Shown here in pieces: positions 11,700-29,308 of a stretch of 35,451 bases of DNA. Source of the DNA: a virus (Duplodnaviria > Heunggongvirae > Uroviricota > Caudoviricetes); IMG/VR virus record IMGVR_UViG_2695420367_000003, positions 1 to 35,451 of that record. One strand, 5' to 3'. The notes under the pieces were generated by a model that searched no databases, was not told the DNA's origin, and saw only the letters and a program-made list of their open reading frames with translations. Both the position numbers and the translations under genes were made by a program. Positions within the stretch are counted from its first letter, which is position 1; the number at the start of each line of letters is the position of its first letter.

Positions 11700-11900
11700 T
11701 GACCTGAGCTCTCACGGGGCGGAAGGCGCGCGGGTTTTCGCTATTTATGAAAATTTTCCGGTTTAAGGCGTTTCCGTTCTTCTTCGCCGTAACTTAATGT
11801 TTTTATTTAAAACCCCCCCTGAAAAGAAAGGAAACGACAGATGCTGAAAACGGGCTTTTTGGCCTTTGTCGTTTCCTTTCTCTGTTTTTGTCCGTGGAAT
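11700..11900 (+). promoter_or_regulatory. cos: Helper cos site (cosN-like 12-mer at about 11717-11728, plus cosB with R sites and IHF site) upstream of Nu1
   Basis: …GGGCGGAAGGCG CGCGGGTTTTCGCTATTTATGAAAATTTTCCGGTTTAAGGCGTTTCCGTTCTTCTTCG… is nearly identical to the lambda cos region as I recall it, except within the 12-mer. Confidence 0.8.
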
Positions 11901-11905
11901 GAACA

Positions 11906-12425
11906 ATGGAAGTCAACAAAAAGCAGCTGGCTGATATTTTCGGTGCGAGTATCCGTACCATTCAGAACTGGCAGGAGCAGGGAATGCCCGTTCTGCGAGG
12001 CGGTGGCAAGGGTAATGAGGTGCTTTATGATTCTGCCGCCGTCATAAAATGGTATGCCGAAAGGGATGCTGAAATTGAGAACGAAAAGCTGCGCCGGGAA
12101 GTTGAAGAACTGCGGCAGGCCAGCGAGGCAGATCTCCAGCCAGGGACTATTGAGTACGAACGCCATCGACTTACGCGTGCGCAGGCCGACGCACAGGAGC
12201 TGAAGAATGCCAGAGACTCCGCTGAAGTGGTGGAAACCGCATTCTGTACTTTCGTGCTGTCGCGGATCGCAGGTGAAATTGCCAGTATTCTCGACGGGAT
12301 CCCCCTGTCGGTGCAGCGGCGTTTTCCGGAACTGGAAAACCGACATATTGATTTCCTGAAACGGGATATCATCAAAGCCATGAACAAAGCAGCCGCACTG
12401 GATGAACTGATACCGGGGTTGCTGA

Positions 12426-12451
<26 letters not shown>
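11906..12451 (+). CDS. Nu1: Terminase small subunit Nu1
   Basis: MEVNKKQLADIFGASIRTIQNWQEQGMPV… matches lambda gpNu1. Confidence 0.95.
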
Positions 12452-17461: not shown

Positions 17462-17794
17462 ATGACGAGCAAAGAAACCTTTACCCATTACCAGCCGCTG
17501 GGCAACAGTGACCCGGCACATACGGCAACCGCGCCCGGCGGATTGAGTGCGAAAGCGCCTGCAATGACCCCGCTGATGCTGGATACCTCCACCCGTAAGC
17601 TGGTTGCGTGGGATGGCACCACCGACGGTGCTGCCGTTGGCATTCTGGCGGTTGATGCTGACCAGACCAGCACCACGCTGACGTTCTACAAGTCCGGCTC
17701 GTTCCGTTATGAGGATGTGCTCTGGCCGGAGGCTGCCAGCGACGAGACGAAAAAACGGACCGCGTTTGCCGGAACGGCAATCAGCATCGTTTAA
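17462..17794 (+). CDS. D: Head decoration protein D
   Basis: [40 protein letters not shown]… matches lambda gpD; AAGGGA RBS. Confidence 0.95.
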
Positions 17795-17849: not shown

Positions 17850-18125
17850 ATGTCGATGTACACAACCGCCCAGCTGCTGGCGGCAAATGAGCAGAAATTT
17901 AAGTTTGATCCGCTGTTTCTGCGTCTCTTTTTCCGTGAGAGCTATCCCTTCACCACGGAGAAAGTCTATCTCTCACAAATTCCGGGACTGGTAAACATGG
18001 CGCTGTACGTTTCGCCGATTGTTTCCGGTGAGGTTATCCGCTCCCGTGGCGGCTCCACCTCTGAATTTACGCCGGGATATGTCAAACCCAAGCACTTAGC
18101 ATGGCTTTCTGAGGCTTTCGTGTAG
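17850..18125 (+). pseudogene. E: Major capsid protein E, 5' portion only (codons 1 to about 82), interrupted by the satellite insertion
   Basis: MSMYTTAQLLAANEQKFKFDPLFLRLFF…SEFTPGYVKPKH matches the lambda gpE N-terminus, then diverges into 9 unrelated codons and a stop at the insertion junction. Confidence 0.9.
18085..18094. repeat. Left junction core (attL-like) AACCCAAGCA
   Basis: Identical 10-mer at 28518-28527; joining the flanks restores …GTCAAACCCAAGCATGAAGTG… (VKPKHEV of E). Confidence 0.75.
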
Positions 18126-18257
18126 TTGCTGGTTTTTACACTTAATCTTTTGATAATAAAGAATAAGTTTATCTGGCGCTTTCACTGGATTTTCCTCGTT
18201 ATCTGTGTGTTGCAATCATCTCTGTATTGCAGCTTGTATTGCTTTTTGGGGCTAAAA

Positions 18258-19493
18258 ATGGCTGGCGAGAACAAACTGAGCGACAAAGCACTTAAAGGAT
18301 ATCTGGGGAAACCCAGAGAAAAGCAGATCACCATTGCTGATGGAAAGGGGCTTTCTATTCGTGTGAGTACCAAGGGGGCTGTGAGCTTTGTTTTCTTCTA
18401 CAGGTTAGCAGGTGGCCGGGCTGCTCCGGTCTGGCTAACGTTGGGTAAATATCCTGATATGTCACTCAAACAGGCAAGGGAAAAGCGCGACGAGTGCCGT
18501 GGTTGGTTGGCTGACAAACGTGATCCGCGTATCCAGATTAAGATTCAGGCTGAAGAACGCTTAAAGCCGGTCACAGTGGAGGATGCACTAAATTACTGGT
18601 ATGAAAATTACTGTAAGGTGCGTCGTAAAACTCATGCTGTAACGCTTGGCAGATTTCGAAAGCATATCTTTCCCTATATCGGTCATTTGCCCGTAAATGA
18701 CACTCACCTATATGAATGGCTGGACTGTTTTGACCGAATTAAACGTAATGCACCAGTTATGGCGGCGTATGTTTTTTCTGACACTAAATTAGCTCTTCGT
18801 TTTTGTCGGGTACGCCAGTACGCGACGTGTGATGCTTTAAAGGATTTGCGCATGAGTGATGTGGGGCAGATTGCAGGTAAGCGGGATCGGGTTCTGGATG
18901 AAGCCGAACTGGGCCAGCTCTGGAAGGCAATTTTTGTCGAGCCTGATTTAAAACTAATGTCTGAATACACGCGAAAAATGTTTGTGCTTTGTACAGTATT
19001 TGGATGTCGAATGAGTGAAGCCCGATTATCAGAATGGAGCGAATGGGATCTCGAAAGTTGGGTTTGGACTGTACCAAAAGATCACTCAAAAACTGGTGTT
19101 GAAATCGTCAGACCAGTACCTGAAATTCTACGACAGTGGGTAACGGATGTTCACGAAGAGACAAAACATACTGGTTATGTGCTGGGAAGTCTGCGAATTA
19201 GAGAAAGCGTAAGCAAGATTGGGGGGAAAATCGGTAAACGTTTGGGCCATGAAAAACAATGGTCACTACACGACCTTAGAAGAACGCTTTCAACCCATCT
19301 GAGTGATTTGGGCGTTGAGTTTCATGTAGTGGAGCAGCTGTTAGGCCATGCGCTACCTGGCGTGGCAGGTGTTTACAACCGGAGTAAGTTTATGGCTAAA
19401 AAACTGGATGCTCTGGAACTCTGGACTACATATCTCAATAGCATCGCAGCTGCTGATTCAAAAGTGACAATCCTCAAACAAAAGGCTGGTTAA
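18258..19493 (+). CDS. int: Tyrosine integrase (P4-type, with N-terminal arm-binding domain)
   Basis: N-terminal …LSDKALKGYLGKPREKQITIADGKGLSIRVSTKGAVSFVFFYR…; catalytic-region motifs HDLRRT…LLGH…VYNRS; true ATG at 18258, the track start is upstream. Confidence 0.88.
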   Translation: MAGENKLSDKALKGYLGKPREKQITIADGKGLSIRVSTKGAVSFVFFYRLAGGRAAPVWLTLGKYPDMSLKQAREKRDECRGWLADKRDPRIQIKIQAEERLKPVTVEDALNYWYENYCKVRRKTHAVTLGRFRKHIFPYIGHLPVNDTHLYEWLDCFDRIKRNAPVMAAYVFSDTKLALRFCRVRQYATCDALKDLRMSDVGQIAGKRDRVLDEAELGQLWKAIFVEPDLKLMSEYTRKMFVLCTVFGCRMSEARLSEWSEWDLESWVWTVPKDHSKTGVEIVRPVPEILRQWVTDVHEETKHTGYVLGSLRIRESVSKIGGKIGKRLGHEKQWSLHDLRRTLSTHLSDLGVEFHVVEQLLGHALPGVAGVYNRSKFMAKKLDALELWTTYLNSIAAADSKVTILKQKAG

Positions 19494-19494
19494 C

Positions 19495-19728
19495 ATGAAA
19501 AAAATGGCAATTGTCGATAAAAAGGGTCTGGAGTACATTCCTAACATTGACCGTATGATCCGCGAAAAAGAATGCCGTGAGTTAACTACTCTTGCTAATA
19601 GCACTCGATGGAAGTTAGAGAAAGAAGGAAAGTTTCCAAAGCGTATTAAAATAGGTGCCACTGCCGTAGCATATCGCCTTTCGGAGGTGCAGGCGTGGAT
19701 TCGTGGGGAATGGTACTTAAATAAGTAA
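19495..19728 (+). CDS. alpA: AlpA-family HTH regulator/excisionase-like protein
   Basis: …ECRELTTLANSTRWKLEKEGKFPKRIKIGATAVAYRLSEVQAWI… fits the AlpA pattern; directly follows int. Confidence 0.8.
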   Translation: MKKMAIVDKKGLEYIPNIDRMIREKECRELTTLANSTRWKLEKEGKFPKRIKIGATAVAYRLSEVQAWIRGEWYLNK

Positions 19729-19768: not shown

Positions 19769-20494
19769 TTAAATCATGTCTGCCTTATTTCCTAATTTTA
19801 TGGAGCAATCCTCTAAAAGATGCCCGATGAACTTATGAGTTCCAATAACATAATCTTGAAGCCTATATTCCATTCCTAATAATGACTTGTTCTCTTTGTC
19901 CTTGAAAAAAGGAAAAGAGGCAAGGTTTTCATCGACAATATAAAGGTGTTTGATTTTGTTGTTTAAAACCCTAGTTTCGTTAATGACATCGTAAGAATCA
20001 AGTTGGGAGAGGTCAATACCATAACTTAAGTATTTCTTTTTTAATTTATCCCATGTATATGGAACTTTAACTTGACTTTCAGGTATTTCTTTAATAATTG
20101 CTTCTAGCAAAGAGTATGCCATGGTACTAAACTGTTCAATAATAGCCCAAAGATTAATTACGACACTGTCATTGGCAAAAAATGAGGCTTTTCTATTAAG
20201 ATCATCATAATAACCAACCATCTCTCTATGTCTGGCTTGAGAAATCAAGGCCATTTCATGCACTTCATCGTCTAATAAGTCTGGATTATATTGGGGAGTG
20301 TTGTCTGCAATTTTTTGTATCTCCTTAAGATTTATGTTATATGTATGATAAACAAATGAGTGAAATACTATTAGATCTTCAAGTCGGAACGAAAATTTCC
20401 CAAGTAGAGACAGGAATCTACTATCATGAGGGAAATAATGTGGGATAGGATTGTCTGTTAAATTATATTCACTTATTCGTTTTAGATTTTGCAT
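19769..20494 (-). CDS. Hypothetical 241-aa protein, AT-rich cargo (function unknown)
   Basis: Long ORF, visibly AT-rich versus surrounding genes, co-oriented and 24 nt downstream of the RHH gene; no motif I recognise. Confidence 0.6.
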   Translation of the reverse strand: MQNLKRISEYNLTDNPIPHYFPHDSRFLSLLGKFSFRLEDLIVFHSFVYHTYNINLKEIQKIADNTPQYNPDLLDDEVHEMALISQARHREMVGYYDDLNRKASFFANDSVVINLWAIIEQFSTMAYSLLEAIIKEIPESQVKVPYTWDKLKKKYLSYGIDLSQLDSYDVINETRVLNNKIKHLYIVDENLASFPFFKDKENKSLLGMEYRLQDYVIGTHKFIGHLLEDCSIKLGNKADMI

Positions 20495-20518: not shown

Positions 20519-20713
20519 TTAACCTCTAGGTTCAATACCTTGTTTGCGTAGTTCTGCTCTTGCTAGTTCTTTAAGCCAATTAGCCAAACTCATTCCTTCT
20601 TTTGCAGCCGCACTAACCATTTGTTCTTTTAGTTCCGGGTGGATACGGATCTGAAATGCCGGTGCCTTACCAGCACCTTTCGGCTGTTTATCGCGCTGAA
20701 TGATAGTTGACAT
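20519..20713 (-). CDS. Ribbon-helix-helix (CopG/Arc-like) DNA-binding protein; candidate repressor or antitoxin
   Basis: 64 aa; …FQIRIHPELKEQMVSAAAKEGMSLANWLKELARAEL… is typical of RHH proteins; first gene of a leftward operon diverging from the replication module. Confidence 0.65.
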   Translation of the reverse strand: MSTIIQRDKQPKGAGKAPAFQIRIHPELKEQMVSAAAKEGMSLANWLKELARAELRKQGIEPRG

Positions 20714-20852: not shown

Positions 20853-21056
20853 ATGAGAAATCATACCACACACCCGCAAGGGCGGGACCCGCACAACCTG
20901 AATAAATACATCTGGCGTTTTATCGCCCTGAGTACGGCACAACCGCGCGTGATTACCATCGAGGCCACCAGCGAACAGGAAGCCCGCCAGCAATCCCCAA
21001 CTGGCTGCGTGATGATATTCGCCGCCCGTATTCGTCAGGAGGTGTGCCATGAATGA
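20853..21056 (+). CDS. Hypothetical small protein (67 aa)
   Basis: GAGGTAG RBS before the ATG; first gene of the rightward operon leading to the primase. Confidence 0.5.
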   Translation: MRNHTTHPQGRDPHNLNKYIWRFIALSTAQPRVITIEATSEQEARQQSPTGCVMIFAARIRQEVCHE

Positions 21057-21273
21057 TCTTTATTTGAAAGTGCTGACACATGCTGAAAACGCGCTCGTTT
21101 GTGGCAAAAATATGCGAGAAATCTTATCAACCTGGCTTGATGGGACAACAAATGCGGAACACGATGAACGGGATGCTAATTTAGCTGGAGCGTTAATTAC
21201 GTTACTTGATCCTGTCATCAAAGAGCTGGATGAAGCTATAAAAATACACGACCAGAGCTATACCGGAGAATAA
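21049..21273 (+). CDS. Hypothetical small protein (74 aa)
   Basis: AGGAGGTG RBS; start overlaps the upstream ORF stop. Confidence 0.5.
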   Translation: MNDLYLKVLTHAENALVCGKNMREILSTWLDGTTNAEHDERDANLAGALITLLDPVIKELDEAIKIHDQSYTGE

Positions 21274-21276
21274 AAA

Positions 21277-21564
21277 ATGAAAAATAAATTTTCTGGCTTT
21301 ATTGCCAGCGGTCAAACTCATTCAAAAATCAGCCTTGGGGATATTTTCAAAGACAGCTATGGCTATCGGGTAAAGATTATTTCGGTTGATGATCGTCGTG
21401 TCTCTTATTTGCGTGATGGTTATGATTTTGAATGTGTTATGCCGCGTCAGCAGTTCGAAAGAGATTTCATTCTGGTAAAAAATTGCAAGACAGATAATCA
21501 GAGGCGTGCCGCAGGCTATATCCGTAAAATTCGGGCAATGTTAGTTGCCGGAGGTAACAAATGA
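21277..21564 (+). CDS. Hypothetical small protein (95 aa)
   Basis: GGAGAA RBS; stop overlaps the primase start. Confidence 0.5.
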   Translation: MKNKFSGFIASGQTHSKISLGDIFKDSYGYRVKIISVDDRRVSYLRDGYDFECVMPRQQFERDFILVKNCKTDNQRRAAGYIRKIRAMLVAGGNK

Positions 21565-23381
21565 AACGTGCTCCGAACTTAAAATACCAACCGCGCGACA
21601 AAATGACGGAAGTCATCATTTTTGCTGGCAGTGATGCCTGGAGCCATGCAAAAGAATGGAATGAATGGGCAGGTAAGCATATTGCAGCAGATGATACACC
21701 ACCAGTCATTCTGGGTACAGAACAACTGGAAAACCTGGATGATATGCAAATTATCGATGAAGGCCGTCATTATGTGCGTGTTTATCGTGCTGGAAAGATT
21801 GCAGAGAAAAGTCTGACGAAGGTTGCGACATTACTTGCTATTGCAGGCGTAAAGGAAGCACGTTGTTACCGTAGCTTTGTTGATCGAGAGCCTGAAGACT
21901 GGACTCCGCGCCTTGTCGGCCTAAAAGCTGAAGCGGAGCATGGGGAAAGTCTGGTGATTGAACTGCCAGTGAAGAAGGCAGAGCGCAAAAATGACGAGCG
22001 TGCTTCATCTTTGGCGTTGAATCAGATGGGGGCCAGCCAGCGCGGTGAAGTTCTCCTTGCACATTACGGCGGCGAACTGGCAATCAATGCCGACTCTGAC
22101 ACCGTTCATCATTACAACGGCGTTGTATGGGAGCCGGTTCAGGATAAAGAGTTACAGCGTGCTATGGCGCAGATTTTCATTGATGCGGAGATCAGCTATT
22201 CGCAGAACGCTATTAAATCGGCGGTAGATACCATGAAGTTAAGTTTGCCTGTAATGGGGAATACAGCCCGTAACCTGATTGGATTCAGTAACGGGGTATT
22301 TGATACCAGAACTGGTAATTTTCGGGAGCATAACAAAAACGACTGGTTGTTAATTGCCAGTGAATTACCTTTCAGCCCACCAGCAGAGGGGGAAACGCTG
22401 GCAACACATGCGCCGAATTTCTGGAAGTGGTTGCGCCGTTCGGTGGCTGAGAATGACCGCAAGGCAGATCGCGTACTGGCGGCATTATTCATGGTGCTGG
22501 CGAACCGGTACGACTGGCAGTTATTCATTGAGGTAACAGGGCCGGGGGGAAGTGGTAAAAGTGTGATGGCGGAGATTTGCACCATGCTGGCGGGTAAGGC
22601 GAATACAGTATCAGCAAGCATGAAGGCGCTGGAAGATGCAAGGGAACGTGCGTTAGTGGTTGGCTTTTCGCTGATTATCATGCCGGATATGACCCGCTAC
22701 GCTGGTGATGGGGCAGGGATTAAGGCCATTACAGGCGGTGACAAGGTGGCAATTGACCCGAAACACAAAGCCCCCTATTCAACGCGTATTCCGGCAGTAG
22801 TGCTGGCGGTTAACAATAACGCCATGTCATTCAGTGACCGCAGCGGGGGGATCTCACGTCGTCGGGTGATATTCAATTTTTCGGAAGTTGTACCGGAGAA
22901 CGAACGCGATTCGATGCTGGCGGAAAAAATAGAAGGTGAGCTGGCGGTAGTGATTCGTCATCTGCTTACACGGTTTGCTGATCAGGACGAAGCCAGACGC
23001 CTGTTATATGAGCAGCAGAAATCTGAAGAAGCACTGGCGATAAAGCGAGAGGGGGATTCGCTGGTGGACTTCTGCGGCTATCTCATGGCATCGGTAATGT
23101 GTGATGGCCTGTTAGTGGGTAATGCTGAAATTGTGCCATTCAGCCCACGCAGGTATCTCTATCATGCCTATCTGGCTTATATGAGGGCACATGGGTTTGG
23201 TAAACCTGTAACACTGACGCGCTTCGGTAAAGATATGCCGGGGGCAATGGCGGAATATGGCAGGGAGTATATGAAACGGAAAACGAAGCACGGTTTGCGT
23301 TCAAACGTGACACTGACGGAGGAATCAGAAGACTGGATGCCATCATGTGTATCGGTCACTAATGACGATAGCAAAAATTAA
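21561..23381 (+). CDS. Phage/plasmid primase-helicase (P4-alpha-like domain with SF3 helicase Walker A GPGGSGKS)
   Basis: 606 aa; Walker A and downstream helicase-like motifs; immediately followed by the iteron array. Confidence 0.85.
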   Translation: MKRAPNLKYQPRDKMTEVIIFAGSDAWSHAKEWNEWAGKHIAADDTPPVILGTEQLENLDDMQIIDEGRHYVRVYRAGKIAEKSLTKVATLLAIAGVKEARCYRSFVDREPEDWTPRLVGLKAEAEHGESLVIELPVKKAERKNDERASSLALNQMGASQRGEVLLAHYGGELAINADSDTVHHYNGVVWEPVQDKELQRAMAQIFIDAEISYSQNAIKSAVDTMKLSLPVMGNTARNLIGFSNGVFDTRTGNFREHNKNDWLLIASELPFSPPAEGETLATHAPNFWKWLRRSVAENDRKADRVLAALFMVLANRYDWQLFIEVTGPGGSGKSVMAEICTMLAGKANTVSASMKALEDARERALVVGFSLIIMPDMTRYAGDGAGIKAITGGDKVAIDPKHKAPYSTRIPAVVLAVNNNAMSFSDRSGGISRRRVIFNFSEVVPENERDSMLAEKIEGELAVVIRHLLTRFADQDEARRLLYEQQKSEEALAIKREGDSLVDFCGYLMASVMCDGLLVGNAEIVPFSPRRYLYHAYLAYMRAHGFGKPVTLTRFGKDMPGAMAEYGREYMKRKTKHGLRSNVTLTEESEDWMPSCVSVTNDDSKN

Positions 23382-23394
23382 ACTTATGGAATAA

Positions 23395-23620
23395 CTGTTC
23401 ACCACTGTTCACCCTGTCATAAATATCTTTTATATCAGTATATTATAGGGTGAACAGTTATTTATGAACTGTTCACCAAACTATTCACTGTTCACCTTTT
23501 TGATTGTTTATTGAGCTTCAAGGGTGAACAGTGGTGAACAGTTGGTGAATAGTTTTTGTGAAACTGTTCACCCATTAACATTATGAATTAAAAGAGAAAA
23601 TATCAAAAGGTGAACAGGTG
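23395..23620. repeat. Satellite replication origin: at least 10 copies of the iteron GGTGAACAG/CTGTTCACC in both orientations
   Basis: Seen directly: the motif recurs at about 23396, 23406, 23449, 23469, 23489, 23524, 23534, 23545 (variant), 23565 and 23610 within an AT-rich stretch downstream of the primase. Confidence 0.8.
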
Positions 23621-23668: not shown

Positions 23669-23914
23669 ATGACAGCGAAGCACACAAAAAAATCACAATC
23701 GCACGCCCTTGATTTGACGGAACACTGGTTAAGGGTGTCGATAAAAATCATCGACCGCAACGCCGGGGAAGGATACGCGAAAGCACATCCCGAACTGATT
23801 AGCGCATTCATGACAACGGCGGCTGCAAACTTTGCCACTCTGACCGAACGGGAGATTGCTGAAGCGGAGGAAGTGACAACAATCAATATTAAGTCCGGAG
23901 AGCAGGCAGCATGA
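23669..23914 (+). CDS. Hypothetical protein (81 aa)
   Basis: ORF overlapping the SSB-like gene start; no recognisable motif. Confidence 0.45.
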   Translation: MTAKHTKKSQSHALDLTEHWLRVSIKIIDRNAGEGYAKAHPELISAFMTTAAANFATLTEREIAEAEEVTTINIKSGEQAA

Positions 23915-24360
23915 TGGCGCAAATATCAGTTTACGGGCGGTTGGTGGACGACCCGCAGACAAAACAGACCAGCAAGGGCACCCCCATGACGCTGGCGCGT
24001 ATGGCGGTATCAATGCCCTGCAGTCAGTCGGATGACGGTCAGGCGACGATGTGGTTATCTGTCCTGGCGTTTGGCAGACAAGCCGACGCACTGGCAAAGC
24101 ATCACAAAGGCGAACTCCTGAGCGTGGCGGGTAACATGCAGATGAGCCAGTGGACTGGACAGAACGGCGAAACGCGGCAGGGCTGGCAGGTTATCGCAGA
24201 CAGCGTAATCAGTGCGCGATCGGTGCGACCGGGCGGCAAAAAAGGCCAACAGGGGCAGGCTACTGACGAACTGAACAGAGCAAAACAACAGGCAGATCAG
24301 CAAGGAAGCCAGCCACCAGTGGGAGATAATGAGCAATGGGGAGATGATATCCCGTTTTAA
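23911..24360 (+). CDS. SSB-like single-stranded DNA-binding protein with C-terminal acidic DDIPF tail
   Basis: OB-fold-like N-terminal region parallels E. coli SSB; Gly/Gln-rich linker; C-terminal …EQWGDDIPF. Confidence 0.7.
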   Translation: MMAQISVYGRLVDDPQTKQTSKGTPMTLARMAVSMPCSQSDDGQATMWLSVLAFGRQADALAKHHKGELLSVAGNMQMSQWTGQNGETRQGWQVIADSVISARSVRPGGKKGQQGQATDELNRAKQQADQQGSQPPVGDNEQWGDDIPF

Positions 24361-24375
24361 ATATTGCCAATAAAA

Positions 24376-24401
24376 AAGGCCGGAAAAAATAAATTTTCCG
24401 G
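24376..24401. terminator. Hairpin GCCGGAAAA-AATAAA-TTTTCCGGC downstream of the SSB-like gene
   Basis: Perfect inverted repeat with A-rich and T-rich arms; a possible terminator or attenuator before the capsid genes. Confidence 0.4.
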
Positions 24402-24576
24402 CATGCTACATAAATCCCGACCAAAGGGAGTGAAGATATTAACACTAATTGTCCGCACTGAAGTTGTCACCCCAAAACTTTATACAACATTGCACTCGGT
24501 TGCATGTGTTCGCATGACAAATATCGGTGGTAGCATATATCCACAATTATTTTTAATGAATGCAAAGAGGATGCGT

Positions 24577-25617
24577 ATGGTTGATTTATATTCGCCTACT
24601 CAGCTTGTACAGGTGGTTAATGCTGTAGATGTACAAAAACAACTAAATGCGTTGTTTACCAGTTTGTTTTTTACTCGCTCGGTAATGTTTGAATCGCGCG
24701 ATATTATTCTTGATACAATCGACGATCCAAATATCCCAATTGCAGCGTTTTGTTCTCCTATGGTGGGTAGTAAAGTTTCACGTGACGAAGGGTACGAATC
24801 AAAAACAATTCGTCCAGGCTATATGAAGCCGAAAAGCAGCATTGATCCAAATAAGTTAGCTGTGCGCCCTGCTGGTGTATCACCTGAGCAATACAATGCT
24901 TTTGGGGCACGTAATATTAAAGTTAAACAGGCGATTGTAAATCAAGCTAAAGCTATTCGTGCACGTATTGAATGGCTTGCTGTTCAGGCAATCACAACGG
25001 GGAAAAATATCATTGAGGGCGATGGTATTGAACGTTATGAGCTGGACTGGAATATTAAACCACAAAATATCATCACTCAGTCTGGCGGTGCTGAGTGGTC
25101 AGGTAAGGATAAAGAAACTTTTGATCCAAATGATGATATTGAGAGCTACGCAGAATTTAGTGAGGGCGTCACTAATATTATCATTATGGGCGGTAATGTA
25201 TGGAAGAAATACCGTTCATTCAGAGCGATAAAAGAGGCTCTGGATACCCGTCGTGGTTCTAATTCCGAACTGGAAACGGCCCTTAAAGACCTTGGTGATT
25301 CGGTGAGTTTTAAAGGGTATATGGGCGATGTTGCGATTGTTGTATACAGCGGGCGTTATACCGACGAGGACGGAACTGAAAAACATTTCCTTGATCCTGA
25401 TTTGATGGTGCTTGGCAATACGGCTCTTCAGGGGATTGTCGCCTATGGCGGTATTCAGGATCCGGAGCTAATCCGAATGGGGCTGACTAAAGCCGAACTT
25501 GCACCGAAAAACTATATTGTGCCTGGTGATCCGGCTATTGAATATGTGCAGACACATTCAGCACCACAGCCAATACCGGCCCGCATCAATCGTTTTGTTA
25601 CCGTTCGCATTGGCTAA
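24577..25617 (+). CDS. Satellite-encoded major capsid protein, diverged homolog of lambda gpE
   Basis: C-terminal 180 aa align to lambda E (…SGGAEWSGKDKETFDPNDDIESYA…LDTRRGSNSELETALKDLG…GDVAIVVYSG…); N-terminal half diverged but collinear (RPGYMKPKS vs TPGYVKPKH); GAGG RBS 6 nt before the ATG at 24577. Confidence 0.85.
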   Translation: MVDLYSPTQLVQVVNAVDVQKQLNALFTSLFFTRSVMFESRDIILDTIDDPNIPIAAFCSPMVGSKVSRDEGYESKTIRPGYMKPKSSIDPNKLAVRPAGVSPEQYNAFGARNIKVKQAIVNQAKAIRARIEWLAVQAITTGKNIIEGDGIERYELDWNIKPQNIITQSGGAEWSGKDKETFDPNDDIESYAEFSEGVTNIIIMGGNVWKKYRSFRAIKEALDTRRGSNSELETALKDLGDSVSFKGYMGDVAIVVYSGRYTDEDGTEKHFLDPDLMVLGNTALQGIVAYGGIQDPELIRMGLTKAELAPKNYIVPGDPAIEYVQTHSAPQPIPARINRFVTVRIG

Positions 25618-25626
25618 GGGGGAGCA

Positions 25627-25968
25627 ATGGCTACTCATTACACTGAACTCATGGCTGGCACTGAAGCACTGGTGACTACACTGGGGATATTTTCAGCTAA
25701 TAAAGGGGTAATTCATGCATTTACGCCACTGATGCAGGAAGATGCAACAGGTGCACTGGTGGTATGGGATGGTTCGAGCGTAGGTAAAGCGGTTTATGTT
25801 TCCGCTGTACAAATCGACACCGCGAAAAAAACACAGGCTCAGGTCTATAAGACAGGTGTCTTAAATGTTGATGCTCTGAACTGGCCTGAGTCTGTTAAAG
25901 AACTGTCAGTAAAGGTTGCAGCGTTTGTTGGCTCAGGTATTTCTGTTCAGCCGCTGGCTCGTGTGTAA
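25627..25968 (+). CDS. Satellite-encoded head decoration protein, diverged homolog of lambda gpD
   Basis: 113 aa; shares the spaced pattern TPLM…WDG…G…Q.YK.G…WPE…AF.G..ISV with lambda D (copy at 17462-17794). Confidence 0.65.
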   Translation: MATHYTELMAGTEALVTTLGIFSANKGVIHAFTPLMQEDATGALVVWDGSSVGKAVYVSAVQIDTAKKTQAQVYKTGVLNVDALNWPESVKELSVKVAAFVGSGISVQPLARV

Positions 25969-25979
25969 AGGGGGATACA

Positions 25980-26363
25980 ATGCAGAATGATTACAATGAC
26001 CTTAAGCCAATTGCCGAAATGATGTACCCGAATCAAGCTGTAGAGGAATTAAAAGCTATCGCTGACAAAATGTGTTTAAGCGAGCGCCTTGTTGATATGA
26101 ATCAGGTGATGGAAATTACAACCCTGAGTCGTCGTACACTGCTAAACCTTGAGGCTAGTGGAGAGTTCCCGGAGCGTGTGCAGGTTACGGAAGGGCGTAA
26201 GGCCTGGTATTTAAGTGAAGTGATCGACTGGATAAATAATATTCCTCGCGCTTCTGAATATTGCCGCGTACCTGTCCCAAAAAAGCCAGATGCGGCGCTA
26301 TGCCTCAAGATTGAGCGTGTACGCCGCAATGCACGGGATGGTCGCTATAAGCTGATTGGTTGA
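25980..26363 (+). CDS. HTH DNA-binding protein (AlpA/MerR-like motif) adjacent to satellite cos
   Basis: …MEITTLSRRTLLNLEASGEFPERVQVTEGRKAWYLSEVIDWI… helix-turn-helix; last gene before cos. Confidence 0.6.
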   Translation: MQNDYNDLKPIAEMMYPNQAVEELKAIADKMCLSERLVDMNQVMEITTLSRRTLLNLEASGEFPERVQVTEGRKAWYLSEVIDWINNIPRASEYCRVPVPKKPDAALCLKIERVRRNARDGRYKLIG

Positions 26364-26413
26364 TGAAGTTAGGGCCCGCTCTGGCTGGCGGGTCCTTTCC
26401 GGCGATCCAGAAC

Positions 26414-26600
26414 GTTACGGGGCGTCAGGCGCGCAGATTCTTGCTATTTATGACAATTTTCTGCGATTTGCCGTTTCCGTTCTTCTTCCTCGTAACTTAG
26501 TGTTTTTACTAGAAATACCCTCTTAAAAGAAAGGAAATGACAGGTGCTGAAAACAGGCTTTTGGGTCTCCGTCATTTCCTTTCTCATTTTTATCTAAAAG
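26414..26600 (+). promoter_or_regulatory. cos: Satellite cos site (cosN-like 12-mer at about 26420-26431 plus cosB-like R and IHF elements), no terminase gene attached
   Basis: About 190 bp closely similar to the helper cos region (…CGTTTCCGTTCTTCTTC…AAAAGAAAGGAAA.GACAG.TGCTGAAAAC.GGCTTTT…TTTCCTTTCTC…); not followed by Nu1. Confidence 0.8.
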
Positions 26601-26815
26601 TAAGCATCGAGGCCACCCCAAATGCTTATAGAGGTTATTGTGTCACTATGCGTACTGTTCAGGATTTAAAGTAGCAAGACATCTAGTTGCTTGCAGTTTT
26701 GGCGAATGATGTGAGGTTCTCTATAACAGATAATGTAACAAGTTACTGATATATTCTGTTATGGTTGACTTTAAATTCTGTTGCTCCTTCAATGAATTAT
26801 TGAGGGGTGAAAATT

Positions 26816-26841
26816 AGGCGTGATAAGAATCGATCACGCCT
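26816..26841. terminator. Hairpin AGGCGTGAT-AAGAATCG-ATCACGCCT just beyond the 3' end of the minus-strand cargo gene
   Basis: Perfect 9-bp stem; T-rich on the plus side and A-rich on the minus side. Confidence 0.5.
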
Positions 26842-26846
26842 ATTGT

Positions 26847-28163
26847 TTATCTTGAAGAAATTTTAGGCAGGCTTTTTAAAAATAAATCTTTATTTCTACT
26901 TGCATCAGTTAAAAGTGTTAGGAATATTTTATCTGTAGGAGTGCATGTGCTCTTGTTTAACAGTAATTCACCAAGTTTCTGTAATCGAGAGAATTGCCCA
27001 TCCTCTTGGATTCTGTGACGAAGTGTACTATCATTTTTAATAACATCAACAAATGCAGAAACCATGTTAATATCAAAGTATTCAAACATTTCCAATATTA
27101 AAGGTGCAGCCCCATTTGAATAAAAATTCTTCCTTCCATACTGATAGCTGAAACCACGATGGCCAACATAAGTTTTTGTAATGGCTGAAACAAATTCAAC
27201 AATATTATCTTCAGGGACGAAACTCGAGAATGGTAATAATTGGGTTACGATTTTTTCCTCTTCTGACCAATTATCTAAAGACTCGGTGAGTTTATTAATG
27301 AGAGGCTCAATAATAACTTTTCGGGATGCAGGGCTAATATACATCAGTCCATCTACCAATAGTATGAATTGTTGTGCCTTCTCTATCTTATTGTTGTTTC
27401 CTGAAACTAAATACTTGTCAAATTGTTGGCCGACTTTACGTCGGTCGTCTTTTGAAAGTAATGTCCATAAAATAGGTGCGCAAAATTCAATGTTGTTTCT
27501 GAGTTCACTTGATATATTGGATGAGCAGTATGTGCCAAAAAAACGAGAGGATAATTCACTGATATAAATTGCAGGTAGATCTGAAAAGGCTTGCTTAACT
27601 GCCAGACTATTTTTATTAAATGTTGCCGAATCCATTTCTGAAAGATATGTAGATATATCTATGATGGCTGGTGGAAACTCTTTAGAAAGAACGTATTTAT
27701 TACAATCATTAATCAGGTTCACTACTTTGATTAAATCAGGGTCGCTACTTTGTGGATGTCCACCAAATAGATTCCTGGTTTCTCTAGCTTGTTGTAATAG
27801 TTTCTGACCTTCTCGATCGATAACTCCTATTTTAAATGCTCCATCTATTAAATCAAAGTCGCTCACATAATCCTGAAAATCTTCATACGTTTTAATTTCT
27901 TTTTTTTGTTTACACTCTTTGTTGAATAGATCTAGGCTACGATGAATTATCTTTTGACGTAAATCATCAACTACAGCATTCCAGTAAGCAGTGATGGCAC
28001 TTCTATAACCTTTTACAGGAAGAACTCTTATTGCTTCTGAAATATATGGGCAGTCAACTACATCATGCCTCACAGTTGAGAGCGCAGTTTGTAACAATGT
28101 AACTTCTGTAGAGTCTAGTGGAGTTGGCTGCACTAAATGAGAACTTATCTCTGTACCCTTCAT
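26847..28163 (-). CDS. Hypothetical 438-aa protein, AT-rich cargo (function unknown; candidate accessory or defence gene)
   Basis: Long uninterrupted ORF, visibly AT-rich, between satellite cos and the right junction; no motif I recognise. Confidence 0.6.
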   Translation of the reverse strand: MKGTEISSHLVQPTPLDSTEVTLLQTALSTVRHDVVDCPYISEAIRVLPVKGYRSAITAYWNAVVDDLRQKIIHRSLDLFNKECKQKKEIKTYEDFQDYVSDFDLIDGAFKIGVIDREGQKLLQQARETRNLFGGHPQSSDPDLIKVVNLINDCNKYVLSKEFPPAIIDISTYLSEMDSATFNKNSLAVKQAFSDLPAIYISELSSRFFGTYCSSNISSELRNNIEFCAPILWTLLSKDDRRKVGQQFDKYLVSGNNNKIEKAQQFILLVDGLMYISPASRKVIIEPLINKLTESLDNWSEEEKIVTQLLPFSSFVPEDNIVEFVSAITKTYVGHRGFSYQYGRKNFYSNGAAPLILEMFEYFDINMVSAFVDVIKNDSTLRHRIQEDGQFSRLQKLGELLLNKSTCTPTDKIFLTLLTDASRNKDLFLKSLPKISSR

Positions 28164-28517
28164 TTCAGGATTTTCCTATTCTTTTCCATTTTTCTACTCT
28201 ATTGAATTTGAAAAAGATATCAAGTTCGTTCTTGCCAGTTTTAAGTGGAAAAATTGATGTTACCTTATTGAGATAAGGCAGTTCTCTATAACCTATTGTT
28301 ATTAATTATTTTTATTTTTTTTCCAATTCAGATGTTTAGGGCTAAGAAGTTAAGTGAGAGTTCACAGCAAAACTGCTTCTAGTTCCTCACCGAGGAGCAA
28401 AAGGTTAAGACAGCGTACTTTGTATTGCACAATGTATTGCAGAACCTTCTTTCGAAAGCTACAACAATCAATTTTATATTGAAAATTCAATCATATCCTT
28501 TCGATATTGACTCATAT

Positions 28518-28527
28518 AACCCAAGCA
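28518..28527. repeat. Right junction core (attR-like) AACCCAAGCA
   Basis: Identical to 18085-18094; the downstream sequence continues in the E reading frame. Confidence 0.75.
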
Positions 28528-29308
28528 TGAAGTGAATCCGCAGATGACCCTGCGTCGCCTGCCGGATGAAGATCCGCAGAATCTGGCGGACCCGGCTTAC
28601 CGTCGCCGTCGCATCATCATGCAGAACATGCGTGACGAAGAGCTGGCCATTGCCCAGGTGGAAGAGATGCAGGCAGTTTCTGCCGTGCTTAAGGGCAAAT
28701 ACACCATGACCGGTGAAGCCTTCGATCCGGTTGAGGTGGATATGGGTCGCAGTGCGGCGAATAACATCACGCAGTCCGGCGGCACGGAGTGGAGTAAGCG
28801 TGATAAGTCCACGTATGACCCGACCGACGATATCGAAGCCTACGCGCTGAACGCCAGCGGTGTGGTGAATATCATCGTGTTTGATCCGAAAGGCTGGGCG
28901 CTGTTCCGTTCCTTCAAAGCCGTCAGGGAGAAGCTGGATACCCGTCGCGGCTCTCATTCCGAACTGGAGACAGCGGTAAAAGACCTGGGCAAAGCGGTGT
29001 CTTATAAGGGAATGTATGGCGATGTGGCCATCGTCGTGTATTCCGGACAGTACGTGGAAAATGGTGTCAAAAAGAACTTCCTGCCGGACAACACGATGGT
29101 GCTGGGCAACACTCAGGCACGCGGTCTGCGCACCTATGGCTGCATTCAGGATGCGGACGCACAGCGCGAAGGCATTAACGCCTCTGCCCGTTACCCGAAA
29201 AACTGGGTGACCACCGGCGATCCGGCGCGTGAGTTCACCATGATTCAGTCAGCACCGCTGATGCTGCTGGCTGACCCTGATGAGTTCGTGTCCGTACAAC
29301 TGGCGTAA
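28520..29308 (+). pseudogene. E: Major capsid protein E, 3' portion (codons about 80 to 341), separated from its 5' portion by the satellite
   Basis: …KHEVNPQMTLRRLPDEDPQNLADPAYRRRRIIMQNMRDEELAIAQ… to the C-terminus …DPDEFVSVQLA matches lambda gpE; no own start codon or RBS. Confidence 0.9.

Follow-up and report, generated by a model that had tools for sequence, protein, structure and literature searches.

Capsid genes are common in Gram-negative PICIs. A pair encoding a capsid and a decoration protein has been known in the cos-type PICIs of E. coli since 2018 (PMC6092414) and has a crystal structure (3BQW): in the prototype, EcCICFT073, it consists of the capsid protein c1499 and the head decoration protein c1500. 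Deletion of either c1499 or c1500 left both the transfer titres and the interference with lambda unchanged (PMC6092414), and EcCICFT073 is packaged in full-size, phage-sized capsids as concatemers of ~45 kb (PMC6092414, PMC6893505, PMC10111431). Of the 29 reference Gram-negative PICIs, 21 have a capsid gene (PMC10111431), SatelliteFinder counts genes for capsids or their modification among the components of a PICI, the capsid genes of PICIs and of cf-PICIs falling into separate clades (PMC10085698), and the cos-type SaPI SaPIbov5 has a capsid homolog, Ccm (PMC6893505). The closest described element is the helper-embedded PICI (HE-PICI) Eco567.11capE from E. coli NRG857c, site group E:Phage_cap_E:80 (Tommasini, Mageeney & Williams 2023, PMC10111431), for which excision was shown and no particles were recovered; the excision of this prototype is late, following replication of the composite (PMC10111431).

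The window analyzed here is a DNA stretch of 35,451 nucleotides with a satellite of 10.4 kb. The sequence-only reading had set this satellite apart from "classical" cos-type PICIs supposedly lacking capsid genes, which is contradicted by c1499/c1500 in EcCICFT073, by the 21 capsid-bearing Gram-negative PICIs and by Ccm of SaPIbov5. Since capsid genes are known in cos-type PICIs, the element does not represent the new intermediate type that had been proposed; it has been published as 11capE, and its insertion into a helper capsid gene and its own capsid gene have been known since 2023 (PMC10111431). The additions over the published work are the purifying selection on the pair, its prevalence in 395 of 5426 genomes, the lack of a close phage counterpart, the reversed gene order and an apparently lambda-like central segment in the capsid protein.

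The satellite and its lambda-like helper

[quoted passage not shown] It is co-oriented with the helper genes and inserted at codon 81 of the helper E. The features of the locus are as follows:

11700..11905, +, helper cos, upstream of Nu1 (11906-12451)
17462..17794, +, helper decoration gene D, intact, 110 aa (lambda gpD chain 7vii_H over residues 1-110, E = 1.8e-66)
17850..18094, +, 5' part of helper E, codons 1-81, through the attL core (translation equals the lambda gpE N-terminus)
18085..18094, +, attL 10-bp identity block AACCCAAGCA, identical at both ends
18220..18242, +, doubled TGTATTGC motif, downstream attP copy, ~131 bp after the core centre (repeat family D8)
18258..19493, +, tyrosine integrase (Pfam Arm-DNA-bind_3, Phage_integrase, Phage_int_SAM_3)
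19495..19728, +, alpA, excision and regulation (Pfam Phage_AlpA 6.5e-15)
19769..20494, -, variable cargo slot 1, encoding 241 aa without known function (GC 35%), differing between relatives
20519..20713, -, small Arc/HicB-like DNA-binding protein (Pfam HicB 1.4e-4; PHROG Arc-like repressor)
20853..21564, +, Icd-like/repressor-like gene, 74-aa gene and DUF4222 gene (PHROG; RefSeq annotation of relatives)
21561..23381, +, primase/helicase (Pfam D5_N, DUF5906, Pox_D5), 99.8% identical to the 11capE primase
23384..23572, +, iterons of a probable replication origin, made up of AACTGTTCACC repeats (families D3 and D12)
23911..24360, +, single-strand DNA-binding protein (Pfam SSB 4.5e-17)
24577..25617, +, satE, gpE-family major capsid protein, 346 aa (Pfam, PHROG, solved structures)
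25627..25968, +, satD, gpD/SHP-family head decoration protein, 113 aa (Pfam, PHROG, solved structures)
25980..26363, +, second AlpA-like HTH protein, 127 aa, last gene of the operon (Pfam Phage_AlpA 7.5e-9; AlpA 8c3t 2e-9)
26400..26590, +, satellite cos, cosN GGGCGTCAGGCG with helper-like cosB (aligned with helper cos, ~80% column identity)
26847..28163, -, variable cargo slot 2, encoding 438 aa without known function, GC 34-35% (phrog_27609, unknown function, 2e-188)
28418..28440, +, doubled TGTATTGC motif, upstream attP copy, ~82 bp before the core centre
28518..28527, +, attR 10-bp identity block AACCCAAGCA, identical to the attL block, same core as in NRG857c
28518..29308, +, 3' part of helper E, joining the 5' part in translation

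The two AACCCAAGCA blocks are 10433 bp apart, and joining of 17850-18094 with 28518-29308 produced an E protein of 341 aa with 98.8% identity to lambda gpE. Judging from this junction, precise excision at the 10-bp core, where the satellite integrase would recombine, would regenerate a helper E of the lambda type. Together with the layout and the att blocks, the rejoined E bears out the initial view of a satellite inserted in a lambda-like prophage. The same view had the insertion inactivating the helper counterparts of both shell genes, which does not hold: E alone is interrupted, while D is intact. HE-PICIs have a specific doubled motif, tgTGTATTGCantgTGTATTGCa, placed 81 +/- 2 bp upstream and ~132 bp downstream of the attP centre (PMC10111431), and both copies in the window match it at the published spacing.

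The protein identities to Eco567.11capE were 99.3% for the integrase, which places it in the HE-PICI clade, 99.8% for the primase, 100% for the capsid protein and 98.2% for the decoration protein. Common to both elements are the site in E of a lambdoid prophage, the 10-bp core with its flanks, the doubled TGTATTGC motif and the gene order, while the differences were confined to the two cargo slots (19.7-20.9 and 26.6-28.5 kb) and to a short Nu1-like fragment, which the prototype has retained after cos. The slots of the prototype are occupied by other genes, including HEPN and DUF262, in place of the 241-aa and 438-aa proteins; the former of these had no match in Pfam, PHROG or PADLOC and the latter none in Pfam or PADLOC, and relatives carry defense-type genes in slot 2. 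The same insertion was found in further genomes. The backbone is that of a Gram-negative cos-type PICI: a unidirectional int-alpA-...-pri array with the origin, by Pfam assignments and iterons, downstream of pri, in line with the published location of the PICI ori 3' of pri (PMC6092414), a cos of the helper type and a lack of phage lytic genes and of most structural genes. On these identities, the window contains the 11capE-type helper-embedded PICI described earlier and no novel element.

The satellite capsid and decoration genes

The ATG of satE is preceded by AAGAGG. Its product matched Pfam Phage_cap_E (PF03864) with 1.4e-41 and 143.1 bits (gathering cut-off 22.9), residues 12-343 aligning to positions 4-327 of the 329 in the profile, and the PHROG major head protein with 3e-89. 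In the search against solved structures it matched 3BQW, a capsid protein of a CFT073 prophage, with 2.6e-121, and lambda gpE 7VI9 with 2.3e-76 over residues 12-345. By these solved-structure matches, which settle the fold, SatE is a full-length member of the lambda gpE family of HK97-fold shell proteins, and as such would be expected to assemble into an icosahedral shell on a portal and scaffold. The gpE-like nature proposed earlier for 24577-25617 is therefore retained, while the likeness is not limited to the C-terminal half, as had been supposed, but runs through the full length: the identity to the helper E was 42% overall, with 30% in the N-terminal and 53% in the C-terminal half. A central segment of SatE, at about residues 160-257, appears unusually lambda-like on alignment (62% identity vs 32% elsewhere). 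The N-arm and the E-loop form the gpD-binding sheet (PMC5701804), and by the topology of the HK97 fold both should be located in the N-terminal half of SatE, the part most diverged from the helper E. The crystal structure 3BQW shows its protein in isolation.

The product of satD matched Pfam HDPD (PF02924) with 7.8e-15 and 55.5 bits (gathering cut-off 29.1), the PHROG head decoration family with 3e-25 and, among solved structures, the phage 21 SHP (1TD0, 6.9e-15) and lambda gpD (1C5E, 1.1e-10). These matches identify SatD as a member of the gpD/SHP family of trimeric cement proteins, as had been proposed for 25627-25968, and the capsid and decoration folds predicted for the pair were likewise recovered. 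The identity of SatD to the helper D was 37%, its N-terminus differing as well. By analogy, SatD trimers are predicted to occupy the three-fold sites of the expanded shell.

The spacers of 9-11 nt between satE, satD and the HTH gene, with a Shine-Dalgarno site before each of them, indicate a single putative operon; the consensus scan between the SSB gene and satE found neither a + strand promoter-like site nor a convincing + strand terminator. A PDB search with the 127-aa HTH protein returned AlpA 8c3t alone, and in BLASTP it bore no similarity to a CFT073 protein of 144 aa, taken as RppA by its length, so that it was not assigned to Rpp, the redirector of the helper TerS that many but not all PICIs of the EcCICFT073 type possess; CFT073 c1501 had no match in the PDB.

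The dN/dS values in PICIs at four different att sites were 0.03-0.2 for satE and 0.06-0.34 for satD, staying clearly under 1 at divergences up to dS > 1, and the satE reading frame was intact and full-length in seven of the eight copies examined, with an internal stop in copy L001. By this measure, both genes are under strong purifying selection. The full pair was present in 395 of the 5426 complete E. coli genomes (~7%) at several att sites. The pair also occurs, under equal purifying selection, in the PICIs at chromosomal sites (cspD-clpS, tRNA-Pro/yejM and next to phoQ), and it is kept in PICIs that differ in their integrases and replication modules. Among 50,697 phage records, no E was more than 60% identical to SatE and no D more than ~40% identical to SatD, which marks the pair as specific to satellites. 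The two proteins diverged in parallel, with 54% (SatE) and 55% (SatD) identity to the CFT073 pair and 42% and 37% to the helper pair; from such divergence patterns in three lineages we infer that SatE and SatD are co-adapted. The order E then D in the satellite is the reverse of that in lambda, which argues against a simple recent capture. A recent capture from this particular helper was rejected on the identities of 42 and 37%, the reversed order and the lack of a close phage source. These comparisons show the pair to consist of genuine, full-length and expressed-looking genes, representing the conserved capsid pair of the EcCICFT073-type Gram-negative cos PICIs.

Packaging functions and relation to other satellites

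When the 10.4 kb element was searched by tblastn, with the helper proteins Nu1, A, W, B, C, FI and FII as queries, no hit had an E value below 0.9, and no terminase, portal or protease was found among the other ORFs of the satellite in Pfam and PHROG scans. The original statement that the element has no Nu1, A, B or C homolog and only a cos thus stands, and the lack of its own terminase, portal and protease genes requires that these be borrowed from the helper, as had also been proposed. The likeness of the satellite cos to the helper cos (~80%) extends through the cosB region. The helper Nu1/A terminase would cut and package the satellite concatemers, while the portal, the protease/scaffold, the connectors and the tails would probably all come from the helper. 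Lambda packages about 78-105% of 48.5 kb. The most likely package would be a full-size head with some four copies of the genome (41.7 kb), as has been reported for EcCICFT073.

EcCICFT073, which is mobilized by lambdoid helpers, has the same adjacent capsid-then-decoration pair in a cos-type int-alpA-pri PICI, with 54-55% protein identity. In contrast to the element of the window, which resides in a prophage, has a cosB resembling that of the helper and shows no detectable similarity to the RppA candidate, EcCICFT073 is located in the chromosome next to phoQ and combines Rpp with a cos lacking the phage-type cosB. SaPIbov5 is also a satellite without terminase or portal which encodes a diverged homolog of the major capsid protein of its helper, and this homolog is incorporated into the satellite particles (PMC6893505). 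However, Ccm belongs to a sequence family unrelated to SatE and has no partner decoration gene. Furthermore, under Ccm the prolate phi12 heads give way to small isometric ones, and the interference is relieved when Ccm is lost, whereas the E. coli relative of SatE has neither effect. The cf-PICIs likewise encode their own major capsid protein, and some of them decoration functions, but they possess a full head module (TerL, TerS, portal, protease and head-tail connectors), of which the element of the window has none, so that it falls outside the cf-PICIs. With P4 it shares the lifestyle of a satellite of temperate coliphages, capsid-surface proteins (Psu being a decoration protein), an int-alpA-like-primase backbone and a cos. 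However, the P4 Sid is an external scaffold, the fold of Psu is unrelated, P4 has no major capsid homolog and it is helped by P2 instead of a lambdoid phage.

Possible functions of the pair

The locus as a whole is in all likelihood explained by a genuine shell/cement pair of an HE-PICI of the 11capE type, with the helper supplying the remaining packaging functions. As to the function, we tentatively prefer, with somewhat less than even confidence, a role in which the two proteins, as co-adapted shell and cement, become part of particles assembled on the helper portal and scaffold. SatE and SatD would then act as an alternative or supplementary supply of shell protein useful to the satellite, and the pair would be non-essential for transfer because the helper gpE can do the same job. 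The unaffected transfer and the full-size heads of EcCICFT073 imply that any structural role is dispensable under laboratory conditions.

A stronger version, in which the two proteins form a satellite-specific shell, either as whole particles or as patches, such as the vertices, on the helper portal and scaffold, is considered unlikely. The transducing particles would in that case differ from the helper virions in surface, stability or size, and the adaptation to lambda-type partners would lie in the central, lambda-like segment of SatE.

Tommasini et al. suggested the idea of a backup copy (PMC10111431), according to which satE, with satD, would supply the capsid protein of the composite in cis before or without excision. 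The co-orientation of the satellite genes with the helper late operon means that late read-through would express both genes, and no + strand terminator was found between the SSB gene and satE. However, the pair is equally selected in PICIs at chromosomal sites, where no helper E is interrupted, and a backup therefore cannot be its general function; besides, SatE is just 42% identical to the helper E, and a copy of D is needless because the helper D is intact. This makes the backup function rather improbable. There is equally little to recommend an interference factor, i.e., SatE and/or SatD poisoning or diverting the assembly of helper heads, for example by titrating scaffold, portal or gpD sites, and so lowering the helper yield to the advantage of the satellite. 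Interference by capsid proteins is common among satellites, Ccm being an example, and the central segment of SatE (62% vs 32%) could allow mixed capsomers, but deletion of c1499 or c1500 did not restore lambda plaques on cells with EcCICFT073, a result which redundancy with Rpp could mask, and poisoning alone hardly explains a decoration protein under purifying selection.

The possibility, raised in the sequence-only reading, that the pair takes the place of the entire helper shell and forms a smaller head, e.g. T=4, for the 10.4 kb genome seems distinctly improbable; it would turn the element into a partial capsid-forming satellite. In its favor, the two genes are co-adapted, full-length and kept by purifying selection, precedents for capsid homologs linked to small heads exist in SaPIbov5 (Ccm) and PmCI172, and by our own geometric estimate a T=4 head would be about filled by two copies (20.9 kb). 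EcCICFT073, on the other hand, produces phage-sized capsids with ~45 kb concatemers while carrying the homologous pair, whose deletions leave its transfer unaffected, and four satellite copies fit a normal lambda head. Finally, a decaying remnant of a captured helper head-gene cluster without present function is disfavored as very improbable: the cycles of late-gene capture and loss proposed by Tommasini et al. (PMC10111431), the internal stop in one satE copy and the EcCICFT073 knockouts without phenotype are outweighed by the low dN/dS, the intact full-length frames in seven of eight copies, the conservation in PICIs whose integrases and replication modules differ, the lack of a close phage source and the order opposite to that of lambda.

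The puzzle is, thus, that about 7% of the complete E. coli genomes keep a strongly selected shell-plus-cement pair despite the phenotype-free knockouts. A satellite-specific shell, if true, would explain this conservation in the face of no laboratory phenotype and would represent a third strategy between the classical PICIs and the cf-PICIs. The answer would bear on the use of satE and satD in lambda-based display and packaging systems, and it would reveal whether virulence and defense genes travel in particles whose composition is changed by PICIs.

Embedded element and helper prophage

The window covers the right-hand portion of a lambda-like prophage with the gene order O, P, moron region, ninB, rusA, Q, lysis genes, cos, Nu1, A, W, B, C/Nu3, D, E, FI, FII, Z, U, V, G, T, H, in which gene E is split by an element of 10,433 bp whose G+C content is lower. 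The 10-bp block AACCCAAGCA is present at each end of the element, and joining of the flanks at this block restored a 341-aa E protein with 98.8% identity to lambda gpE. The sequence-only reading had the insertion inactivating the D/E gene pair of the helper, but only E is interrupted, while helper D is intact.

Helper, satellite and cargo genes in the window
1811-5719 (+): 1302-aa inverse autotransporter, intimin/invasin-like (IAT_beta plus Big_1/Invasin_D3 repeats), helper moron region between P and ninB
5756-6799 (-): 347-aa BD-FAE/alpha-beta hydrolase esterase, same region, on the strand opposite to the autotransporter
17462-17794: helper D, intact, equal to lambda gpD over 1-110
17850-18094: helper E, codons 1-81
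19769-20494 (-): 241-aa protein, satellite cargo slot
24577-25617 (+): satE, satellite capsid gene
25627-25968 (+): satD, satellite decoration gene
26847-28163 (-): 438-aa protein, phrog_27609, unknown function, satellite cargo slot
28518-29308: helper E, remainder

The satellite consists, in order, of a tyrosine integrase, alpA, a variable slot, small regulators, a D5-type primase, iterons, an SSB, satE, satD, a second AlpA-like HTH gene, cos and a second variable slot. A published helper-embedded PICI (HE-PICI), Eco567.11capE (11capE), is an 11-kb element interrupting the E (capsid) gene of E. coli NRG857c prophage 50icd, with a 10-bp identity block and a capsid gene of its own, and 201 elements were counted at this site (PMC10111431). 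Comparison of the window with the NRG857c locus showed identities of 99.3% for the integrase, 99.8% for the primase, 100% for the capsid protein and 98.2% for the decoration protein; the core and flanks were alike, while the differences were confined to the two cargo slots. The HE-PICI-specific doubled motif, tgTGTATTGCantgTGTATTGCa, also occurs twice, with the published spacing from the core. The element is therefore a member of the published satellite type, nearly identical to the type specimen, and the same insertion was found in other complete E. coli genomes.

A series of repeats containing AACTGTTCACC, some of which are palindromes, lies directly 3' of the primase gene (23384-23572) and is probably the origin of satellite replication. 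The SSB stop codon is directly followed by a strong hairpin (GCCGGAAAA-loop-TTTTCCGGC, 24379-24402). On the plus strand this hairpin is preceded by an A-run but lacks a T-run on its 3' side, and thus scores as a terminator for the opposite strand only. A near-identical 18-mer is located at 21280-21297. Both cargo slots are low in GC (34-35%); the 438-aa protein had no Pfam or PADLOC match and the 241-aa protein no match at all. The slots of relatives carry genes for a TIR-domain protein, an abortive-infection protein, HEPN plus DUF262, a restriction endonuclease and DUF2971, which makes the two proteins candidate uncharacterised anti-phage genes.

Capsid and decoration genes of the satellite

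The satE gene, with an ATG start and an AAGAGG Shine-Dalgarno site, encodes a 346-aa protein matching nearly the whole Pfam Phage_cap_E profile (1.4e-41, well clear of the gathering threshold), the PHROG major head protein family (3e-89) and, among solved structures, 3BQW, a "putative capsid protein of prophage" from E. coli CFT073 (2.6e-121), and lambda gpE (7VI9; 2.3e-76, residues 12-345). The 113-aa satD product matched Pfam HDPD above threshold, phage 21 SHP (1TD0; 7e-15) and lambda gpD (1e-10). This confirmed the gpE-like and gpD-like assignments made earlier, except that the similarity to gpE is not restricted to the C-terminal half: identity to the reconstructed helper E was 42% over the full length, with 30% in the N-terminal versus 53% in the C-terminal half, which explains why only the latter had been seen to align. 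The order satE-satD is the reverse of that in lambda, where D precedes E. The spacers between satE, satD and the HTH gene measure 9-11 nt and each contain a Shine-Dalgarno site, which indicates that the three genes form an operon.

The pair diverged in parallel, satE and satD having 54% and 55% identity to the CFT073 pair versus 42% and 37% to the helper pair. The N-terminal half of satE, the least similar to helper E, should hold the N-arm and E-loop, judging from HK97-fold topology rather than mapped domain boundaries; these two form a sheet binding the gpD N-terminus (PMC5701804). The satD N-terminus is likewise unlike that of helper D, and together with the parallel divergence this fits a co-adapted shell-and-cement pair. 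The PICI decoration proteins have a shorter and different N-terminus compared to phage gpD, and share a C-terminal extension QPLAR(V) lacking in the latter (window 25954-25968; relatives L004:1736-2071 and L005:10046-10387).

Residues ~160-257 of satE (25054-25347) were 62% and 60% identical to lambda- and phi80-type E versus 50% to the PICI paralog c1499, while outside this segment identity was 32% (lambda-type) versus 56% (c1499). Sites shared exclusively with the helper versus c1499 numbered 21 versus 9 inside and 10 versus 66 outside (Fisher p = 3e-8, inflated because the segment was chosen after seeing the data). This pattern suggests a mosaic satE that may have arisen through ancient recombination with an E gene of the helper type.

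The earlier premise that classical cos-type PICIs carry no capsid genes proved wrong. The prototype cos-type E. coli PICI, EcCICFT073, has capsid protein c1499, whose crystal structure is 3BQW, followed by head decoration protein c1500 (PMC6092414; CFT073 locus); among reference Gram-negative PICIs, 21 of 29 carry a capsid gene (PMC10111431); in SatelliteFinder, genes for capsid proteins or capsid modification count as PICI components (PMC10085698); and the cos-type SaPIbov5 encodes the capsid homolog Ccm (PMC6893505). Capsid genes of PICIs and cf-PICIs form separate clades (PMC10085698). The pair is thus ordinary gene content of this PICI lineage, not the mark of an intermediate type.

Packaging functions

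A tblastn search with helper Nu1, A, W, B, C, FI and FII against the element gave nothing better than E = 0.9, and family scans of the remaining satellite ORFs detected no terminase, portal or protease. The satellite cos (~26400-26590) is ~80% identical to that of the helper, cosB included. The proposed lack of Nu1, A, B and C beside a cos, and the dependence on the helper head machinery, were therefore correct.

Several close relatives have a Nu1-like small-terminase gene directly 3' of cos (L003:13586-14383; L005-L007; L008:13086-13472). It is absent from the window element (26363-26850), and 11capE has only a 64-aa ORF at this position, where helper cos-Nu1 similarity ends; both have lost the gene. 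Since both keep a helper-like cosB, this implies that the satellite would use helper Nu1 directly. Similarity to some relatives ends within cos, past cosN, and with the varying small-terminase gene this makes cosB and terS seem to be swapped as a cognate module. The second AlpA-like protein had no similarity to the CFT073 protein taken as RppA by length.

The presumed 12-nt cohesive ends of helper (GGGCGGAAGGCG, cosN ~11714-11725) and satellite (GGGCGTCAGGCG, ~26416-26427) differ at two central positions, and both are unlike the lambda end, GGGCGGCGACCT.

Possible role of the pair

For 11capE, the composite was shown to excise precisely and to replicate, and the satellite to excise late; particles were not recoverable (PMC10111431). 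That the satellite is embedded, restores E when it excises, forms an independent replicon and has a helper-type cos is either evident here or published, as is the supply of terminase, portal, protease/scaffold, connectors and tail by the helper, and in the proposed cycle about four genome copies (41.7 kb) would fill a normal head, by analogy with EcCICFT073 and from the lambda packaging range. Our tentative preference, falling a little short of probable, is that satE and satD are structural, providing an alternative shell and its matching cement in the particles, beneficial but not essential.

The authors of 11capE proposed that the satellite capsid gene could back up the interrupted helper gene (PMC10111431). 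Such a backup in cis is unlikely and cannot be general, since helper D is intact and non-embedded PICIs keep the pair: the full pair was found in 395 of 5426 complete E. coli genomes, in PICIs with differing integrases and replication genes, located in prophage E, at cspD-clpS, at tRNA-Pro near yejM and next to phoQ, so that its function is not tied to embedding in E. Poisoning of helper assembly is equally doubtful: deletion of c1499 or c1500 in EcCICFT073 changed neither transfer titres nor the lambda plaque block (PMC6092414), though redundancy possibly masked an effect in these knockouts. Redirection to small capsids is less likely again, weakened by the same system, since EcCICFT073 is packaged as concatemers in phage-sized capsids (PMC6092414). 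A decaying remnant is highly improbable, because both genes are maintained by selection: pairwise Nei-Gojobori dN/dS was 0.03-0.2 for satE and 0.06-0.34 for satD, out to dS > 1, and 7 of 8 satE copies were intact.

The closest full-length relative of the window, in E. coli ET665 (98% identity), has an internal stop in the satellite capsid gene (L001:13285-14325) and an intact decoration gene; loss of the capsid gene thus need not entail the immediate disappearance of the element.

Among 50,697 phage records no phage E exceeded 60% identity to satE (best, lambda-type, 42%) and no phage D exceeded ~40% to satD; the lineage of this conserved and widespread pair is satellite-specific. The reliance on the helper head machinery stood, while the claimed novelty did not, as a capsid/decoration pair in a cos-type PICI, and this element itself, are already known.
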